Of a DNA stretch of 64,000 nt, positions 3,024-23,104 are shown one piece after another. Under the pieces are notes generated by a model. That model made no database searches. It saw only the letters and a list, made by a program, of their open reading frames with translations, and was not told the DNA's origin. The position numbers were made by a program, and so were the translations under genes. The stretch is from Escherichia coli (GTDB lineage Bacteria; Pseudomonadota; Gammaproteobacteria; Enterobacterales; Enterobacteriaceae). Each line of letters opens with the position of its first letter. Within the stretch, counting starts at the first letter, position 1. The stretch lies in assembly GCF_022846255.1 (NCBI RefSeq), contig NZ_AP025682.1; one strand, written 5' to 3'.

Positions 3024-3341
3024 ATGAAAAAGATAGCTGCTATATCATTAATTAGTGTTTTTCTTATGTCTGGTTGTGCTGTGCATAATGATGAGACAAG
3101 TATCGGTAAATTTGGCCTTGCATATAAAAGTAATATTCAGCGTAAACTCGATAACCAATACTACACCGAAGCCGAAGCTTCTTTAGCCAGGGGCAGAATT
3201 TCTGGTGCAGAAAATATAGTAAAAAATGATGCAGCTCATTTCTGTGTTACTCAGGGAAAAAAAATGCAGATAGTTGACCTGAAGACAGAAGGTGCAGGAT
3301 TACATGGCGTCGCTCGTCTGACATTCAAATGTGGAGAGTGA
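3024..3341 (+). CDS. yegR: small lipoprotein YegR
   Basis: Start ATG at 3024 preceded by a ggaagg RBS; signal peptide with lipobox (FLMSGC); 105 aa, consistent with YegR. The supplied ORF (2964) has a 20-aa N-terminal extension that I reject. Confidence 0.8.
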   Translation: MKKIAAISLISVFLMSGCAVHNDETSIGKFGLAYKSNIQRKLDNQYYTEAEASLARGRISGAENIVKNDAAHFCVTQGKKMQIVDLKTEGAGLHGVARLTFKCGE

Positions 3342-3498
3342 GAATATTTTTTGGTAAGCGTCAAACATGCGCGTTCTGGCTGTGCGTAACCGGAACCTGT
3401 GCGAGCACGATGCCAATAAGTGAAAGGCATCGTGCTATGAGGGGAGATTCTATCGATGTGGTCAATGGAAGACGGTTACCAGGATACGGCTTATGCAT

Positions 3499-3585
3499 AA
3501 AAAATAAGCCCGTGTAAGGGAGATTACACAGGCTAAGGAGGTGGTTCCTGGTACAGCTAGCATTTTATGGGTTATGTTTTTCAGC
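3499..3585 (-). ncRNA. cyaR: CyaR (RyeE) Hfq-dependent sRNA
   Basis: The reverse complement of 3499-3585 matches the 87-nt CyaR sequence as I recall it (GCTGAAAAACATAACCCATAAAATGCTAGCTGTACCAGGAACCACCTCCTTAGCC...CGGGCTTATTTTTT), including its intrinsic terminator, and lies immediately 3' of yegQ as expected. Confidence 0.85.
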
Positions 3586-3619
3586 GAAACGGATGATAAC
3601 CTTAATAAATGCAGCTGTA

Positions 3620-3635
3620 TGTGATCGGTTTCTAA
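3620..3635 (-). promoter_or_regulatory. putative class II CRP site of the cyaR promoter (TGTGA-N6-TCTAA on plus strand)
   Basis: A TGTGA half-site plus a degenerate partner, centred about 42 bp upstream of the CyaR 5' end; CyaR is known to be CRP-activated. Confidence 0.5.
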
Positions 3636-3669
3636 GAATTTTCCATCCGGGAAAAATAATCGAAATTAA

Positions 3670-5031
3670 TCACTTACCGTGGGGGTTACGCGTGGTTTCC
3701 CCGGAGAAATTACGCATCAGCAGCGCGTAATTTAGCTCAAGATCCTGCGGCACCGGGATCCACACAGTATAACCATCGCCCGGTGCGACCGGCATTGCTT
3801 CGCCTTTGGCGTTTTCCATATGCTCAAGGGTAAAGTTAATGTTCCCTTGCGGCGTCATCAGCTCAAGGCTGTCGCCAACGGAGAATTTATTTTTCACCGC
3901 TACCGCCGCGAGGTCGCCCTTGCGCTCACCGGTAAACTCACCAACAAACTGCTGGCGGTCAGAAACTGAATAACCGTATTCGTAGTTCTGATAATCGTCG
4001 TGAGTATGACGACGCAGGAAACCTTCGGTATAGCCACGATGCGCCAGACCTTCCAGAGTTTCCAGCAGGCTGGTATCGAACGGTTTGCCCGCAGCGGCAT
4101 CATCGATAGCTTTACGGTAAACCTGCGCGGTGCGTGCGCAATAGTAGAAAGATTTGGTACGACCTTCGATTTTCAGCGAATGCACGCCCATTTTGGTCAG
4201 GCGTTCTACATGGGCGATGGCGCGCAGATCTTTCGAGTTCATGATGTAAGTGCCGTGCTCATCTTCAAACGCGGTCATATACTCGCCCGGACGCTGGGCT
4301 TCTTCGATCATAAACACTTTGTCGGTTGGCGCGCCGATACCCAGCGTCGGCTCAACATTTTGCACCGGAATCGGCTCGTACTTGTGTACGATGTTGCCAA
4401 CGTCATCTTCTTTCCCTTCCTGGACGTTGTACTCCCAGCGGCAGGCGTTGGTGCAGGTACCCTGGTTCGGGTCGCGCTTGTTGATATAGCCAGAGAGCAG
4501 GCAGCGACCGGAGTAGGCCATGCACAGCGCGCCGTGAACGAAGATCTCGATCTCCATATCCGGCACCTGATTGCGGATCTCTTCAATCTCTTCCAGCGAC
4601 AGCTCGCGAGAGAGGATCACGCGGGTCAGTCCCATTTGCTGCCAGAATTTCACCGTCGCCCAGTTCACGGCGTTAGCCTGTACCGAGAGATGGATCGGCA
4701 TTTCAGGGAAGTGCTCGCGCACCAGCATAATCAGCCCCGGATCGGACATAATCAGCGCATCCGGCCCCATTTCCACCACCGGTTTCAGGTCACGGATAAA
4801 GGTTTTCAGCTTGGCGTTGTGCGGTGCAATGTTGACCACAACATAAAACTTTTTCCCCAGCGCGTGGGCTTCATTGATGCCGAGCTGAAGATTTTCGTGG
4901 TTGAATTCGTTGTTGCGCACACGCAGGGAGTAACGCGGCTGGCCCGCATAAACAGCATCTGCGCCATAAGCGAAAGCGTAACGCATATTTTTCAGCGTTC
5001 CCGCCGGGGAAAGGAGTTCCGGTTTAAACAT
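3670..5031 (-). CDS. yegQ: peptidase U32-family protein YegQ (TrhP, tRNA ho5U34 hydroxylation)
   Basis: 453-aa ORF with U32 family signatures (MFKPELLSPAG...collagenase-like); length and position as expected for yegQ. Confidence 0.92.
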   Translation of the reverse strand: MFKPELLSPAGTLKNMRYAFAYGADAVYAGQPRYSLRVRNNEFNHENLQLGINEAHALGKKFYVVVNIAPHNAKLKTFIRDLKPVVEMGPDALIMSDPGLIMLVREHFPEMPIHLSVQANAVNWATVKFWQQMGLTRVILSRELSLEEIEEIRNQVPDMEIEIFVHGALCMAYSGRCLLSGYINKRDPNQGTCTNACRWEYNVQEGKEDDVGNIVHKYEPIPVQNVEPTLGIGAPTDKVFMIEEAQRPGEYMTAFEDEHGTYIMNSKDLRAIAHVERLTKMGVHSLKIEGRTKSFYYCARTAQVYRKAIDDAAAGKPFDTSLLETLEGLAHRGYTEGFLRRHTHDDYQNYEYGYSVSDRQQFVGEFTGERKGDLAAVAVKNKFSVGDSLELMTPQGNINFTLEHMENAKGEAMPVAPGDGYTVWIPVPQDLELNYALLMRNFSGETTRNPHGK

Positions 5032-16000: not shown

Positions 16001-16184
16001 CTGGATAAAGCGTGACCACCTGAATGGTTGGATAGTCCACTTCCGGCAGCGCCGAAACGGGCAGGGCGCGATAACCGATAATCCCGGCGAGTAAGATCGC
16101 CACCATCAGCAGCGTGGTGGCGACAGGACGCATAATAAACAGGCGCGACGGGCCGCCTGTGCTGCTCGGGGGTAACACCTGCAT
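13062..16184 (-). CDS. mdtB: RND multidrug efflux pump subunit MdtB
   Basis: 1040 aa AcrB-like RND transporter, paralogous to the adjacent MdtC. Confidence 0.95.
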
Positions 16185-17431
16185 CAGGAGCGCGCTCCTT
16201 TTTTCGCGTATTCGCGGCTGGTGGCTTTATCTTCCGGGGTAGTGGCGCTCTGGGCTTCCACGACTTCCACTTTCGCCCCTTCGGTCAGGCGATCAATGCC
16301 GTCCGTCACTACGCGGTCGCCCGCAGAAATACCTGCACGGATCACCACTTTCTGACTGTCCTGAATGCCCGGTGTCACCAGATGTTTGCTGACTTTGTTT
16401 TCGCTATTCAGTACCCAGACAAAATGGCCTTCGTTGCCCATTTGCAGTGCGGCGGTGGGGATCACCACGGCGTTTTGTTCGGTATCGACTAACATGCGAG
16501 CGTTAACAAACTGATTAGGGAAAAGCGCATCATCCTGATTATTAAAGCGAGCTTTCACTTTAATCGTACCGGTAGTGGCATCGATTTGGTTATCGAGACT
16601 TAACAGCGTGCCTTCACTTAACTTCTTCGAGTTGGTGCGATCCCAGGCTTCTACCACCAGCGGTTTTCCGGCTTTTTGCGCCTGTACAACGGTGGCGATA
16701 TCGCTTTCCGGCAGAGTAAAGACCAGATCGATAGGATGCGTCTGGGTGATCACCACAATCCCGGTGGTGTCGCCACTGGAGATTTGGTTACCAACATCAA
16801 CCTGCTTGAGACCAACGCGACCATCAACTGGTGCGGTGATACGGCTCCAGTCGAGTTGCAGCTGTGCGCTGGCGACGCTTGCTTCATCAGCCTTAATGGT
16901 ACCTTCGGTTTCACTGACCAGCGCTTGTTGGGCATCCAGTTCCTGACGAGATACGAGATTGGTTTTTGCCAGTTGTTGATAACGCGCCAGGTCACGGCGG
17001 GCGTTGGCGAGCGTGGCTTTATCTTTTGCCAGTTGGCCCTGGGCTTGTGCTAATGCAACTTTGAACTGGCTTGGGTCAATTTCTGCCAGTAAATCGCCTG
17101 CTTTGACCTGCTGGCCTTCCTGGAAATGTAACGCCATCAGTTGACCGTCCACGCGGCTGCGCACCGTAACAGTATTAGCGGCGGTAATGGTGCCAAGCCC
17201 GGTGAGGTAACGCGGAACAGCCTGTTCTACTGCGGTCGCCGCCTGAACCGGAGCTAATGGGCCGGCACGCATACCACGGCGACCACCCGCTGGCGATTGC
17301 TGCGCTTGTTTCGTCGCCCCAGGGGCTGCACTCTGGGAGTCATTGCGGCCTTGCCAGAACCAGAATGCGGCGATGGCGGCGATAACCACCACGATTACGA
17401 TTACCCAACGGGATTTATAACTGCCTTTCAT
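16184..17431 (-). CDS. mdtA: RND efflux membrane fusion (periplasmic adaptor) protein MdtA
   Basis: 415 aa from ATG at 17431 ([16 protein letters not shown]...). The supplied ORF start at 17578 adds 49 residues upstream that I reject. Confidence 0.9.
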
Positions 17432-17484
17432 CGTTAAGAGTTTCTCTTCCTGAAACGTTTCGCGGAATGATACTAGTGTAGCCA

Positions 17485-17502
17485 GCCAATAAGGGAGAAA
17501 AA
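17485..17502 (-). promoter_or_regulatory. putative BaeR box upstream of mdtA (TTTTTCTCCCTTATTGGC on minus strand)
   Basis: Close match to the recalled BaeR consensus TTTTTCTCCATDATTGGC, about 55-70 bp upstream of the mdtA start. Confidence 0.45.
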
Positions 17503-17669
17503 TGGAGGAATTATGAAACACTGTCGGGAATCGTCTGAATGACGGGCACATTTGCGAGCACGCATCCAGTAATAACACATGAAACTATTTTATCTACGCG
17601 TTAGCGATAGACTGCTTGCATGGCGAAAGGAGATAAGCCGACGATTTCAGCGGGACGCTGAAACGGAAA

Positions 17670-17994: not shown

Positions 17995-18140
17995 GAAAGC
18001 CCCTCCCGAGGAAGGGGCCTTAAATAAGGAAAGGGTCATGATGAAGCTACTCATCATCGTGGTGCTCTTAGTCATTAGCTGGCCAGCTTACTAAGACTAC
18101 CAGGGCGGGGGAAACCCCGCTCTACCCTCACTCCTGAAAT
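17995..18140 (-). ncRNA. sibB: SibB-like antisense sRNA (type I antitoxin); ends approximate
   Basis: Second copy of the same terminator hairpin on the minus strand at about 17997-18022, antisense to the second ibs ORF. Confidence 0.5.
18038..18094 (+). CDS. ibsB: Ibs-family hydrophobic toxic peptide, 18 aa (MMKLLIIVVLLVISWPAY)
   Basis: Translated directly from the sequence; second repeat unit. Confidence 0.7.
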   Translation: MMKLLIIVVLLVISWPAY

Positions 18141-18311
18141 TATGTCACTCCGCCCTTAGTGTCAATCGACGGCTCTCCGTTCTTGCGAGGCGAATAGCAA
18201 AATTTTCTGCGCCGCCGGGCCTAATTCTGAAAGTTTCTTCGTTTGCTCTTATTTCATTATTGCAATCGGTATGATACCGGACCTCAATAATTCTCTAAGA
18301 AAGGATTTCTT

Positions 18312-18971
18312 ATGAGCGAACAAATCACGTTTGCCACCAGCGATTTTGCCAGTAACCCGGAACCACGTTGCCCCTGCATTTTGCTGCTGGATGTTTCTGG
18401 CTCGATGAGCGGCAGACCCATTAATGAACTTAACGCCGGATTGGTTACCTTTCGCGATGAGCTGCTTGCCGACCCGCTGGCCTTAAAAAGAGTGGAACTC
18501 GGTATTGTGACGTTCGGCCCAGTGCATGTGGAACAACCCTTTACCAGCGCCGCTAATTTTTTCCCGCCCATCCTGTTTGCCCATGGGGATACACCAATGG
18601 GCGCCGCCATTACCAAAGCCCTGAATATGGTTGAGGAGCGCAAACGTGAGTATCGCGCCAATGGTATTTCCTATTATCGTCCGTGGATTTTCCTGATTAC
18701 CGATGGCGCACCAACCGATGAGTGGCAGGCTGCTGCCAACAAGGTGTTTCAGGGGGAAGAAGATAAGAAGTTTGCCTTCTTTTCCATCGGTGTTCAGGGG
18801 GCGGATATGAAGACGCTGGCCCAAATCAGCGTTCGTCAGCCTTTGCCATTGCAGGGATTACAATTCCGTGAACTGTTTAGCTGGTTATCCAGTTCGCTGC
18901 GTTCGGTTTCCCGCTCCACGCCGGGAACGGAAGTTGTGCTGGAAGCGCCAAAAGGCTGGACGTCAGTGTGA
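18312..18971 (+). CDS. yegL: von Willebrand factor A (TerY-like) domain protein YegL
   Basis: 219 aa; MIDAS motif DVSGSMSG in a VWA fold; first gene of a three-gene operon. Confidence 0.9.
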
Positions 18972-19729
18972 GCTGGCGTCTGGTCTATGCATCAACCGTT
19001 GGAACGTCGCACATCAGCGCGGACTTGCCTTGCCAGGATGCCTGCCAGATGCAGGTTGCCTGGTTAAATGACCAGCAGCCATTATTGTCGGTATTTGTCG
19101 CTGATGGCGCAGGCAGTGTCTCGCAGGGTGGCGAAGGTGCGATGCTCGCCGTCAATGAAGCGATGGCTTATATGTCGCAAAAAGTGCAGGGCGGGGAATT
19201 GGGGCTTAATGATGTCCTCGCAACGGACATTGTGCTGACCATTCGTCAGCGACTTTTTGCCGAGGCGGAAGCCAAAGAATTAGCGGTTCGCGATTTTGCC
19301 TGCACGTTTTTGGGATTGATTTCATCAGCTAATGGCACCTTGATTATGCAGATTGGCGATGGCGGCGTGGTGGTAGATTTGGGTCACGGTTTGCAACTGC
19401 CGCTCACGCCGATGGTGGGGGAATATGCCAATATGACGCACTTCATTACCGATGACGATGCTGTTTCCAGACTGGAAACTTACACCAGTACTGAGCGTGC
19501 GCATAAAGTTGCAGCATTTACGGATGGTATTCAGCGACTGGCGTTAAATATGCTGGATAATTCTCCGCATGTGCCTTTCTTTACCCCGTTTTTCAATGGA
19601 CTGGCGTCAGCAACGCAGGAACAACTCGATTTATTACCTGAATTGTTAAAGCAGTTTTTGTCCAGCCCGACGGTAAACGAGCGTACCGATGATGATAAAA
19701 CGTTGGCACTGGCGCTGTGGTTACCATGA
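18968..19729 (+). CDS. yegK: PP2C-family Ser/Thr protein phosphatase YegK (PphC)
   Basis: 253 aa; GTG start overlaps the yegL stop (GTGA); PP2C-like motifs (FVADGAGS..., IGDGG). Confidence 0.88.
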
Positions 19730-21666
19730 AACCCACTTTATATACTGCTACTGGTGAGTGCGTTACGCCTGGCCGTGAACTGGGCAAAGGCGGTGAAGGT
19801 GCGGTTTATGATATCGAGGAGTTTGCCGATAGCGTCGCCAAGATTTATCACACGCCGCCACCCGCCTTAAAACAGGACAAACTTGCCTTTATGGCTGCGA
19901 CAGCTGACGCGCAGTTGTTGAATTATGTCGCCTGGCCGCAGGCAACGCTTCACGGTGGACGAGGCGGAAAAGTTATCGGTTTTATGATGCCAAAAGTTTC
20001 TGGTAAAGAACCGATTCATATGATCTATAGCCCGGCACATCGTCGCCAGAGTTACCCTCATTGTGCGTGGGATTTTCTACTCTATGTTGCGCGCAATATT
20101 GCTTCATCTTTTGCTACTGTTCATGAGCACGGGCACGTCGTGGGTGACGTAAACCAGAACAGCTTTATGGTAGGTCGCGACAGCAAAGTGGTGTTGATTG
20201 ATAGCGACTCCTTTCAGATTAATGCCAATGGTACACTGCATTTATGCGAAGTCGGCGTGTCGCATTTTACGCCGCCAGAGCTGCAAACCATGCCATCATT
20301 TGTCGGCTTTGAACGCACAGAAAATCACGATAATTTTGGCCTTGCGTTGCTGATATTTCACATCTTGTTTGGTGGGCGGCATCCTTATTCCGGTGTACCG
20401 CTTATCTCTGATGCGGGTAATGCGCTGGAGACGGATATTGCCCATTTCCGTTATGCCTACGCGTCAGATAATCAGCGACGTGGTTTAAAACCGCCGCCAC
20501 GATCGATTCCGCTGTCGATGTTACCGGGCGATGTTGAAGCCATGTTTCAGCAGGCATTCACGGAAAGTGGCGTGGCAACCGGGCGTCCGACGGCAAAAGC
20601 GTGGGTAGCGGCACTTGATTTACTACGCCAACAGTTAAAGAAATGTACCGTTTCGGCAATGCATGTTTACCCCGCTCATTTGACTGACTGCCCGTGGTGT
20701 GCGCTGGATAATCAAGGCGTTATCTATTTTATTGATCTCGGCGAAGAGGTCATTACCACCGGCGGTGATTTTGTGCTGGCGAGAGTCTGGGCGATGGTGA
20801 TGGCGTCAGTAGCACCGCCAGCATTGCAATTACCATTACCCGATCATTTCCAACCGACTGGCAGGCCGCTTCCTTTAGGCCTGTTAAGGCGTGAATACAT
20901 CATTCTGATTGAGATCGCACTGTCAGCGTTATCGCTGCTGCTTTGCGGCCTTCAGACAGAACCACGTTATATTATTTTGGTTCCTGTGCTGTCGGCTATC
21001 TGGATTATTGGCAGCCTGACAAGCAAAGCGTACAAAGCAGAAATCCAGCAACGCCGTGAGGCGTTTAATCGTGCGAAAATGGACTATGACCATTTAGTCA
21101 GCCAGATCCAACAGTTGGGCGGGCTGGAAGGTTTTATCGCCAAACGGACGATGCTCGAAAAAATGAAGGACGAAATTCTTGGGTTACCGGAAGAAGAAAA
21201 GCGCGATCTGGCAGCACTTCAGGACACCGCAAGGGAACGGCAGAAGCAGAAGTTTCTGGAGGGATTTTTTATTGATGTTGCCTCTATTCCCGGCGTTGGC
21301 CCTGCGCGTAAAGCGGCGTTACGGTCCTTTGGTATTGAAACAGCAGCGGATGTTACCCGACGGAGCGTTAAGCAAGTGAAAGGTTTTGGTGATCATCTGA
21401 CCCAGGCGGTTATCGACTGGAAAGCGAGCTGTGAACGCCGTTTTTTGTTCAGGCCGAACGAAGCGGTAACGCCTGCAGACAGACAAGCGGTAATGGCAAA
21501 AATGGCCGCCAAACGACATCGGCTGGAATCGGCGCTGACTGTCGGTGCGACAGAGTTGCAGCGATTCCGCCTTCATGCTCCAGCACGGACCATGCCGTTG
21601 ATGGAACCGCTACGTCAGGCGGCAGAAAAACTGGCTCAGGCGCAGGCTGATTTAAGCCGTTGCTGA
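19726..21666 (+). CDS. yegI: eukaryotic-like Ser/Thr protein kinase YegI with C-terminal transmembrane, coiled-coil and helix-hairpin-helix regions
   Basis: ATG at 19726 overlaps the yegK stop (ATGA). Gly-rich loop LGKGGEGAVY, a VAIK-like lysine (VAKIY) and a catalytic-loop-like VGDVNQNS; predicted TM helices (IILIEIALSALSLLLCGL, ILVPVLSAIWIIGSL) and an HhH-like IPGVGPARKAALRSFGI. Confidence 0.88.
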   Translation: MKPTLYTATGECVTPGRELGKGGEGAVYDIEEFADSVAKIYHTPPPALKQDKLAFMAATADAQLLNYVAWPQATLHGGRGGKVIGFMMPKVSGKEPIHMIYSPAHRRQSYPHCAWDFLLYVARNIASSFATVHEHGHVVGDVNQNSFMVGRDSKVVLIDSDSFQINANGTLHLCEVGVSHFTPPELQTMPSFVGFERTENHDNFGLALLIFHILFGGRHPYSGVPLISDAGNALETDIAHFRYAYASDNQRRGLKPPPRSIPLSMLPGDVEAMFQQAFTESGVATGRPTAKAWVAALDLLRQQLKKCTVSAMHVYPAHLTDCPWCALDNQGVIYFIDLGEEVITTGGDFVLARVWAMVMASVAPPALQLPLPDHFQPTGRPLPLGLLRREYIILIEIALSALSLLLCGLQTEPRYIILVPVLSAIWIIGSLTSKAYKAEIQQRREAFNRAKMDYDHLVSQIQQLGGLEGFIAKRTMLEKMKDEILGLPEEEKRDLAALQDTARERQKQKFLEGFFIDVASIPGVGPARKAALRSFGIETAADVTRRSVKQVKGFGDHLTQAVIDWKASCERRFLFRPNEAVTPADRQAVMAKMAAKRHRLESALTVGATELQRFRLHAPARTMPLMEPLRQAAEKLAQAQADLSRC

Positions 21667-21678
21667 GCCAGTTTTCAA

Positions 21679-23031
21679 TTAACGAAACACCACTTCCGCC
21701 CAGCGTGCCAGCCCGGCGGTGACGGAGCCAAAGTCATCGCCACCTGCAATCGGAATGCCCGGCAACTGTTCTGTCAGCGCTTTTTTAATCAGCGGTGAAC
21801 GGGCGCTACCGCCGGTCAGATAGATAACATCCGGTTTTTCCTGGGCGTTATCCAGCGCCAGTTGCACCTGTTCCAGAATCCGCGCCAGTGGCTGGTTGAG
21901 GGCGCTTTCCAGCCCTTGCTGGCTAATCAGCGTAGCCAGTTCATCGCTGATAAACGGCAGTGAGGCGCGGGTTTCCGCTACGCTTGAAAGCGCAATTTTG
22001 CTCTCTTCTGCGCTACGTACCAGGCGATAGCTTAAACGCTGACGCCAGACTTTCTGTAACAGGGCCACTTTTTCCGGTTCGCGGGCATCGCGTACCAGAT
22101 CGTTAAGCAGACGACCGTTGGCACTACTGTAGAAATCACTTTGCGCAGGTACGTCGTTGATGGCAACCGCATTCCACCACGGCAGAATCGGCAGGGCGAT
22201 GCCTTTTTCGGTTTCGCCACCCATGCCCAGTAACGGCATCAGGTTCTTAAACGCCAGTGCGATATCCAGATCGTTACCACCAATACGGCAACCACTGTGA
22301 CCCAGCAGGCTGGCTTCACGATCGAGACGCGAACGCCACTGCGGCCCCATCAGCAGCAATGAACAGTCAGTCGTACCACCGCCGATATCCACCACCAGCA
22401 CCCGTTTTTCTTCCTGCAAGGTGGCTTCGTAATCCAGCCCAGCCGCCACCGGCTCGTACTGGAATACCACGTCCTTAAACCCGGCACGCTTCGCTGCGCG
22501 CTCCAGAATCCCTTGTGCCTGGGCGTTTGCTTCATCGCCGCCCAGCCCCTGGAAGTTGATCGGGCGACCAATCACCGCCTGGGTAATTGCCTCCGGCAAT
22601 TGCGCCTGCGCCTGCTGGCGAATGTGCAACATCATTGCGCAGACCAGATCCTCAAACAGCGCTACCTGCTGCGGTTTTAAGCCGCTGGCACCGAGGAACG
22701 ATTTTGGTGATTTCACAAACCACACTTCTTCTGGATCATCAATGTACTGTGCCAGTGAGGAAAGACCGAACTGCACGCTTTTCGCCGTAACATCGATATC
22801 TTCTTCGCGGTTATAACGAATCGCCCGACGCAGCAGCGCCTGCGTTTCATCGTCGTCTGCCGGAACATCATGATAGCGGTACAGCCATTCGCTTACCGCT
22901 TCACGCGTTGGCGCGCAAAGCATTGAAGGCAGCAGCGTGCTGTCGTTTTCCATTTTCAGTAATTGCGGCTTACCGTCGCGCATGACCGCCACTGAACAGT
23001 TTGCTGTACCGTAATCAAAACCAATAAACAC
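21679..23031 (-). CDS. yegD: Hsp70/actin-fold ATPase family protein YegD
   Basis: 450 aa from GTG at 23031 (MFIGFDYGTANCSVAVM...), DnaK-like phosphate-binding motifs; convergent with yegI. The supplied ORF adds 21 N-terminal residues that I reject. Confidence 0.88.
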   Translation of the reverse strand: MFIGFDYGTANCSVAVMRDGKPQLLKMENDSTLLPSMLCAPTREAVSEWLYRYHDVPADDDETQALLRRAIRYNREEDIDVTAKSVQFGLSSLAQYIDDPEEVWFVKSPKSFLGASGLKPQQVALFEDLVCAMMLHIRQQAQAQLPEAITQAVIGRPINFQGLGGDEANAQAQGILERAAKRAGFKDVVFQYEPVAAGLDYEATLQEEKRVLVVDIGGGTTDCSLLLMGPQWRSRLDREASLLGHSGCRIGGNDLDIALAFKNLMPLLGMGGETEKGIALPILPWWNAVAINDVPAQSDFYSSANGRLLNDLVRDAREPEKVALLQKVWRQRLSYRLVRSAEESKIALSSVAETRASLPFISDELATLISQQGLESALNQPLARILEQVQLALDNAQEKPDVIYLTGGSARSPLIKKALTEQLPGIPIAGGDDFGSVTAGLARWAEVVFR

Positions 23032-23104
23032 GAAATAATCCCCATGCCGGTGAAGAAGGGGCGAGACTTTAGCGAAATGTTGCCGTCGCGACAACCGGAA
23101 TATG

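Follow-up and report, generated by a model that had tools for sequence, protein, structure and literature searches.

Known systems

PphC and YegI are a recently characterised pair of a PP2C-type phosphatase and a eukaryotic-like kinase in E. coli, and PphC dephosphorylates YegI in vitro when the REL606 and K-12 proteins are used (bioRxiv 10.1101/303594). The difference between REL606 and MG1655 at their locus has been described and its regulatory effects predicted (Rajagopalan, Nagle and Dworkin, J Bacteriol 2018, bioRxiv 10.1101/303594). The genes meet in an ATGA overlap in REL606 and O157:H7 that is disrupted by yegJ in K strains (Rajagopalan and Dworkin, FEBS Lett 2020, bioRxiv 10.1101/819920), and Göpel et al. 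2026 repeat the distinction between K-12 and B strains, which is already known. Farther afield, Kaur, Burroughs, Iyer and Aravind (2020, eLife, PMC7159879) noted triads of a vWA protein, a PP2C phosphatase and a Ser/Thr kinase beside actinobacterial GAP1-N2 GTPase systems.

We analysed a 64 kb stretch of E. coli DNA (the window) that contains the yegL-pphC-yegI operon. It resembles the operon of REL606 and O157:H7 in its genes, their order, the ATGA overlap and the lack of yegJ, and departs from it by allelic differences only; at this locus the nearest complete genomes differ from the window by 2-5%. K-12 MG1655 has the same flanks (mdtA, ibs, yegD, alkA) and orthologous yegL, pphC and yegI at about 95% identity, but it holds 785 nt where the window holds 50 nt, has yegJ, and has altered PphC and YegI termini. 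The eLife triads share with the window the three domain types in adjacent genes, while the GAP1-N2 GTPase context is theirs. Superficieibacter electus is the reverse case, with a DUF2314 orthologue of YegJ (75% amino acid identity) but no operon, where the window has the operon but no yegJ.

What is new here is the species-wide frequency of the two forms, the polarity of the change as read from 79 listed outgroup loci, the single origin and the age of the yegJ allele, the nature of the junction as a replacement that includes both protein termini, the placing of the yegI promoter inside the insert, and the finding of yegJ in the same gap in Superficieibacter. For those who work on PphC and YegI, the K-12 arrangement is the minority form and very likely the derived one, and the K-12 kinase differs in its N-terminus and very probably has its own promoter, while the coupled three-gene form, found across bacterial phyla, is very likely ancestral. 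In other respects the difference is an ordinary gene-content polymorphism, in a part of the chromosome where recombination is frequent.

The operon in the window

Three genes follow one another on a single strand, vWA first, then PP2C, then kinase, with the domain content VWA, PP2C_2 and YegI-type kinase and with the stop/start overlap ATGA as in E. coli B and O157. The first, yegL (18312-18971, + strand), was taken from the list of open reading frames and encodes a 219 aa vWA-domain protein (Pfam VWA, E = 4e-10) whose RefSeq homologue is named yegL. Its stop overlaps the pphC start in GTGA at 18968-18971 (+), read in the sequence ..CAGTGTGAGCTGG.., and BCE049 and K-12 are annotated likewise. 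The second, pphC (also called yegK; 18968-19729, +), encodes a 253 aa PP2C-like Ser/Thr phosphatase (Pfam PP2C_2, E = 7e-52) identical to PphC of E. coli, WP_137501234.1. The third, yegI (19726-21666, +), encodes a eukaryotic-like Ser/Thr kinase of 646 aa (648 aa in K-12) identical to the E. coli protein kinase YegI WP_137501233.1; the longest open reading frame containing it is 19717-21666 (+), and the 646 aa are counted from the ATG.

A sequence-only reading of this DNA had stated that yegK runs directly into yegI with a 4-nt overlap and that no yegJ-like gene stands between them, and both statements are correct. The ATGA overlap occupies 19726-19729 (+), the yegI ATG being at 19726-19728 and the pphC stop TGA at 19727-19729, and the junction reads ...CTGTGGTTACCATGAAACCC...; the same 4-nt overlap is annotated in BCE049. 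No YegJ-like sequence was found in the whole 64 kb by tblastn with K-12 YegJ (best E = 1.8), and blastn of the K-12 insert against the window gave a single 14-nt chance match. Nor does the window have an opposite-strand DUF2314 gene between pphC and yegI or the termini typical of K-12-type alleles (YegI beginning MKTNIKVF..., PphC ending W(A/T)E); its PphC ends WLP.

The locus is flanked by mdtB and mdtA on the left and by yegD and alkA on the right. Coordinates of the nearest neighbours are those of the longest open reading frames: mdtA at 16184-17578 (-), identified by tblastn and from the annotation of homologous loci, whose annotated 415-aa form would end near 17431, and yegD at 21679-23094 (-), whose annotated 450-aa form would end near 23031.

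Pfam gave no Pkinase match in YegI (19726-21663), just a sub-threshold HHH_5 match at residues 515-551, in line with the description of YegI as being without several conserved kinase residues (bioRxiv 10.1101/819920). We also scanned YegL, PphC, YegI and YegJ with PADLOC-DB 2.0. YegL, PphC and YegJ had no match at all, YegI had weak generic kinase-domain matches (MkoA, E = 6e-5; PD-T4-6, E = 2e-4), and no catalogued anti-phage system was recognised in the four proteins, so membership in a defence system was rejected. The YegI family is thinly covered by profile libraries (Pfam, PADLOC).

The K-12 junction

The same reading had placed a small, oppositely oriented yegJ in this neighbourhood of K-12, and it is indeed there. 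In the K-12 locus (L001) the last position of pphC is 3234 and the first of yegI is 3960; between them yegJ occupies 3299-3760 of the opposite strand, so that the direct overlap is missing. The idea built on this, an uninterrupted three-gene operon here and an insertion-bearing one in K-12, is supported by the alignment with two refinements: the K-12 segment is a replacement, and it is not specific to K-12. Identity between window and K-12 runs up to the TGG codon of PphC W251 and comes back at GGC CGT GAA of the YegI motif GRELGKGGEG. Between these points the window has a 50-nt junction segment (19721-19770, +), which comprises the last two pphC codons, the stop and the first 15 yegI codons, and K-12-type genomes have 785 nt with yegJ (L001 3226-4010) instead. 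Since 785 nt stand opposite 50 nt, this is a replacement and no clean insertion.

Both proteins are touched by the exchange. PphC ends WAE in K-12 and WLP in the window, at equal length, so that the last two residues differ. The first 15-17 residues of YegI are changed, the K-12 N-terminus being MKTNIKVFTSTGELTTL (648 versus 646 aa overall).

The K-12 segment consists of a hairpin, yegJ on the opposite strand, an AT-rich spacer and the different 5′ end of yegI. Its GC content is 37.7%, below the roughly 51% of yegL, pphC and yegI, and falls to 29% both in the spacer between yegJ and yegI and in the first 51 nt of K-12 yegI. The hairpin lies between the convergent stops of pphC and yegJ and has a perfect 11-bp stem (dG -21.5 kcal/mol); it is without a T-run, and a scan of the insert for intrinsic terminators found none. 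A repeat search at the insert ends (L001 3226 and 4010) found no terminal inverted repeats and no target-site duplication, the only inverted pair (21 nt, 71%) being weak and away from the ends, and there is no transposase or integrase in the insert, where yegJ is the sole gene.

K-12 YegJ is a 153-aa DUF2314 protein, and its hydrophobic N-terminus MKKILLMLSLLFFTTAGFS reads like a signal peptide. An RNase E two-hybrid study (PMC13232886) lists YegJ as cytosolic, and the clones recovered there encode residues 16-153, with most of the N-terminal peptide gone; the reported interaction with RNase E may therefore not reflect the native compartment.

Frequency in E. coli

We sampled 5,426 complete E. 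coli genomes, of which 5,417 have the locus. A 111-nt probe of the window junction, with a match of at least 80% of its length counted as a direct junction, identified 3,471 genomes, so that the window junction is no assembly quirk. The K-12 insert was found in 1,934 genomes, always in single copy and always chromosomal. Together the two classes account for 5,405 genomes, which makes this a clean two-state polymorphism at about 64% versus 36%. O157:H7 and B strains belong to the direct class. The yegJ class includes, beyond K-12, an ETEC O6:H16 strain, an O15:H18 strain named ST69, LY180, and isolates from poultry, pig, wildlife and water. The statement of Göpel et al. 2026 that yegJ occurs in K strains only is contradicted by these 1,934 genomes.

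A few individual loci deserve mention. Strain EM18-18-42 (NZ_CP063473.1) has an IS1 inside yegJ; strain ET5 (NZ_CP101014.1) matched only 16% of a 4-kb query and apparently lacks yegL-pphC-yegI; in BCE049, yegD is a pseudogene (L002 5180-6532); and in one locus described below (L096) yegI is rearranged, with a 364-nt inverted piece.

The ancestral arrangement

An outgroup scan was made with PphC, taking one genome per species, and 79 loci were examined among the matches listed; E. albertii, E. marmotae and E. ruysiae are not among these listed loci. Wherever a listed locus has all three genes, they are vWA, PP2C and kinase on one strand, and this triad was found in Proteobacteria, Planctomycetes, Acidobacteria, Chloroflexi, Firmicutes, Cyanobacteria, Actinobacteria, Verrucomicrobia and Bacteroidetes. 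No YegJ or DUF2314 homologue is present in any of the 79 listed vWA-PP2C-kinase loci of other genomes. For the large majority of them, the kinase starts about -26 to +11 nt from the end of the phosphatase gene. Larger gaps occur in L030, L062, L065 and L075 (about 57-80 nt) and in the partial locus L068 (359 nt), and none of these holds yegJ. In a Melainabacteria MAG (L067 5784-6977) a same-strand gene for a 397-aa TPR-repeat protein lies between PP2C and kinase, an independent interruption at the same junction that, unlike yegJ, is co-oriented with the operon.

Closer to E. coli, the direct junction occurs in the context mdtA-yegL-pphC-yegI-yegD in four non-coli representatives of the Escherichia lineage, MOD1-EC7003, E1V33, E. 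whittamii and strain E69 (L003, L004, L005 and L027), the last of which was deposited as E. coli yet recovered as a separate species representative. L003 and L004 have the ATGA overlap and a junction nearly identical to that of the window, and L005 and L027 have the equivalent overlap GTGA. Klebsiella spallanzanii, whose operon is elsewhere in the genome, has ATGA at this junction too.

With no yegJ in the 79 listed outgroup loci and the kinase close to the phosphatase in nearly all of them, the window layout comes out as ancestral, for the gene cassette as well as for the Escherichia locus, and that of K-12 as derived. We consider it highly probable, for our explanation taken as a whole, that the window has the ancestral and majority architecture and that the yegJ form is a derived one that arose once and is old.

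Homologues of YegJ outside E. coli bear on two alternatives. The closest non-coli YegJ proteins (75-76% identity) are from Superficieibacter electus and a related metagenome contig. In both, yegJ occupies the gap between yegD and mdtA and is oriented towards these two genes as it is in K-12, and yegL, pphC and yegI are missing there. It may be, then, that yegJ is an old resident of the yegD-mdtA gap rather than a foreign gene. These two loci were rejected as donors of the spacer or of the yegI 5′ end, DNA similarity stopping at the yegJ coding sequence. On paper, neither a single insertion nor an inversion nor a circular integration turns a yegD-yegJ-mdtA ancestor into the K-12 layout. Two divergent YegJ proteins labelled E. 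coli (P0094 and P0023, about 80% identity) were set aside, as the assemblies that encode them proved to be full of frameshifts and to have the usual K-12 layout.

Between yegJ and mdtA, Superficieibacter electus (L082 6914-11261) has genes with Pfam matches of the type VI effector/immunity kind (Tle3_C, Tli3, SUKH, Imm52); the related metagenome contig (L083) lacks them. With gene content differing between the two, the yegD-mdtA gap looks like a variable island site.

If yegJ were a functional fourth member of the module, strains without it would be incomplete. We regard this as unlikely: a kinase or PP2C gene is nearby in none of six contexts of YegJ homologues outside E. coli, so that a conserved linkage was rejected and yegJ is no conserved partner of the kinase module, a DUF2314 gene is present in none of the 79 listed triad loci, and two thirds of E. 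coli do without yegJ.

Still less probable, in our estimate, is a deletion origin of the window, in which yegJ would be ancestral between pphC and yegI and would have been lost here and in two thirds of the species. The occurrence of yegJ in the same gap and relative orientation in Superficieibacter electus and the metagenome contig would fit such a history, as would the differences of 4-7% between E. coli yegJ alleles, which mark them as old, and the presence of yegJ in loci whose PphC is labelled E. fergusonii. A deletion is, however, unable to create the 50 nt that the window holds and K-12 lacks, which excludes this origin of the window form; moreover, the same or an equivalent overlap is found in L003, L004, L005 and L027, with ATGA in Klebsiella spallanzanii, and yegJ interrupts none of the 79 listed family loci.

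Age and origin of the yegJ allele

Returning to the explanation we prefer, with the window layout ancestral and the yegJ form derived, we compared five yegJ alleles (K-12, LS45, ST69, LY180 and A39). Their left and right junctions are identical, and the divergence between them is 4-7% for the insert as a whole and reaches 12% in the spacer. Identical junctions in five diverse alleles indicate a single origin, and the divergence of the insert indicates that the allele is old. The flanks tell a different story: window pphC is closest to that of the yegJ-bearing LS45, at 1.3% divergence, and is 4.7% diverged from that of K-12 and 2.5% from that of BCE049, which has the direct junction. Flanking alleles are thus unlinked to the junction state, and recombination has shuffled the flanks right up to the breakpoints.

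The weakest alternative, to which we give almost no credence, is a recent mobile-element or cassette insertion confined to the K-12 laboratory lineage, since the low GC of the K-12 insert and the report of yegJ in K strains only (Göpel et al. 2026) are set against a segment present in 1,934 of 5,426 complete genomes of diverse sources, alleles up to 7% apart, and 50 nt of host sequence replaced, not duplicated, with no transposase, terminal inverted repeat or target-site duplication.

NCBI labels the PphC of three further loci (L094-L096) as E. fergusonii, and these loci have the yegJ form. The complete E. coli genome nearest to them matches at 96.2%; they diverge from K-12 about equally in insert and flanks (4.5-5.7% in coding parts), and their hosts are probably E. 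fergusonii.

The start of K-12 yegI carries its own record. In this 5′ stretch the DNA of K-12 and window is 41-47% different. The 12 residues of K-12 YegI that precede the conserved glycine, KVFTSTGELTTL, nevertheless score 10.8 bits on a position-specific matrix of the family built from 59 non-Escherichia homologues, for which shuffles served as the null (-18.5 +/- 7.5); this score was reached by 5 of 20,000 shuffles and by no 12-mer in any frame of the insert. The first 17 codons of K-12 yegI are divergent, then, but family-typical. At the other end, PphC homologues commonly end two residues past the conserved W, and the two E. coli forms follow this pattern. Each breakpoint falls exactly on the best-conserved motif of its side of the junction, one at the end of PphC and the other, GRELGKGGEG, near the start of YegI.

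Because the breakpoints coincide with the most conserved motifs, we propose with moderate confidence that a diverged relative with yegJ already in its operon contributed the segment by homologous exchange into E. coli, with crossovers in these motifs. This introgression step would draw on two things, the positions of the breakpoints and the 17 N-terminal codons. No donor with pphC-yegJ-yegI was found outside E. coli and the probable E. fergusonii group. It is possible, if somewhat doubtful, that the yegJ form did not arise by insertion within E. coli but is an ancient second haplotype of the pphC/yegI junction, acquired by homologous exchange from a lower-GC, unsampled relative with yegJ in its operon, and that it persists at a frequency of about one third across E. 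coli lineages and probably in E. fergusonii. Were this so, the kinase studied in the laboratory in K-12 would have a foreign N-terminus and a foreign promoter, marked H-NS in a published table, and the long-lived two-allele state may reflect selection on the tightness of coupling between kinase and phosphatase.

Predicted expression consequences

In the window, yegL, pphC and yegI would be co-transcribed and translationally coupled, because their stop and start codons overlap (GTGA, ATGA); Rajagopalan and Dworkin draw the conclusion of co-transcription from the same ATGA overlap (bioRxiv 10.1101/819920). In K-12, a convergent gene and a hairpin stand downstream of pphC, and the coupling by overlap is lost.

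A genomic SELEX table (gSELEX; Shimada et al. 2014, PMC3946193) gives sigma-70 promoters for K-12 yegI and yegJ, both in the spacer and flagged HNS. The yegI promoter, TTGTTA-18-TATAAC, maps to L001 3915-3944, which lies within the insert and leaves 15 nt to the ATG, so that in K-12 yegI is very probably transcribed from a promoter of its own with a very short leader. A consensus scan likewise recovered the table's yegJ promoter, ATGATA-17-TACAAT. In K-12-type strains, yegI would then be uncoupled from yegL-pphC and driven by its own promoter, marked H-NS. The sequence-only reading had suggested that the difference would change how the K-12 genes are co-regulated, and altered co-regulation relative to the window is plausible, as the coupling is lost and a sigma-70 promoter for yegI lies inside the insert. 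Transcripts of pphC were undetected under any condition in one study (bioRxiv 10.1101/303594), and little or no expression of the locus was seen in another (Göpel et al. 2026).

Strain lineage and pphC diversity

Even the closest of the 5,426 complete E. coli genomes are only about 98% identical to the window, both for 24 kb (25000-49000; colanic-acid region, dgcE, asmA) and for the 4-kb yeg locus (18000-22000). The exact matches of PphC and YegI to E. coli RefSeq proteins show that the window is E. coli despite these values. Either the strain comes from a lineage with few sequenced members, or recombination is especially frequent in this region. One of the accessions matching the two window proteins carries the locus tag TRECRb50_17250.

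The pphC gene is unusually polymorphic, with pairwise DNA divergence of 1.3-7.1% among E. coli strains (the window, K-12 and the loci L090-L093). In strain E69 it is 18-20% diverged, against about 6-8% in yegL, yegI and yegD, and a pphC so much more diverged than its neighbours indicates a mosaic locus. Naming in RefSeq is uneven as well, some alleles being called 'PphC' and others just 'PP2C family'.
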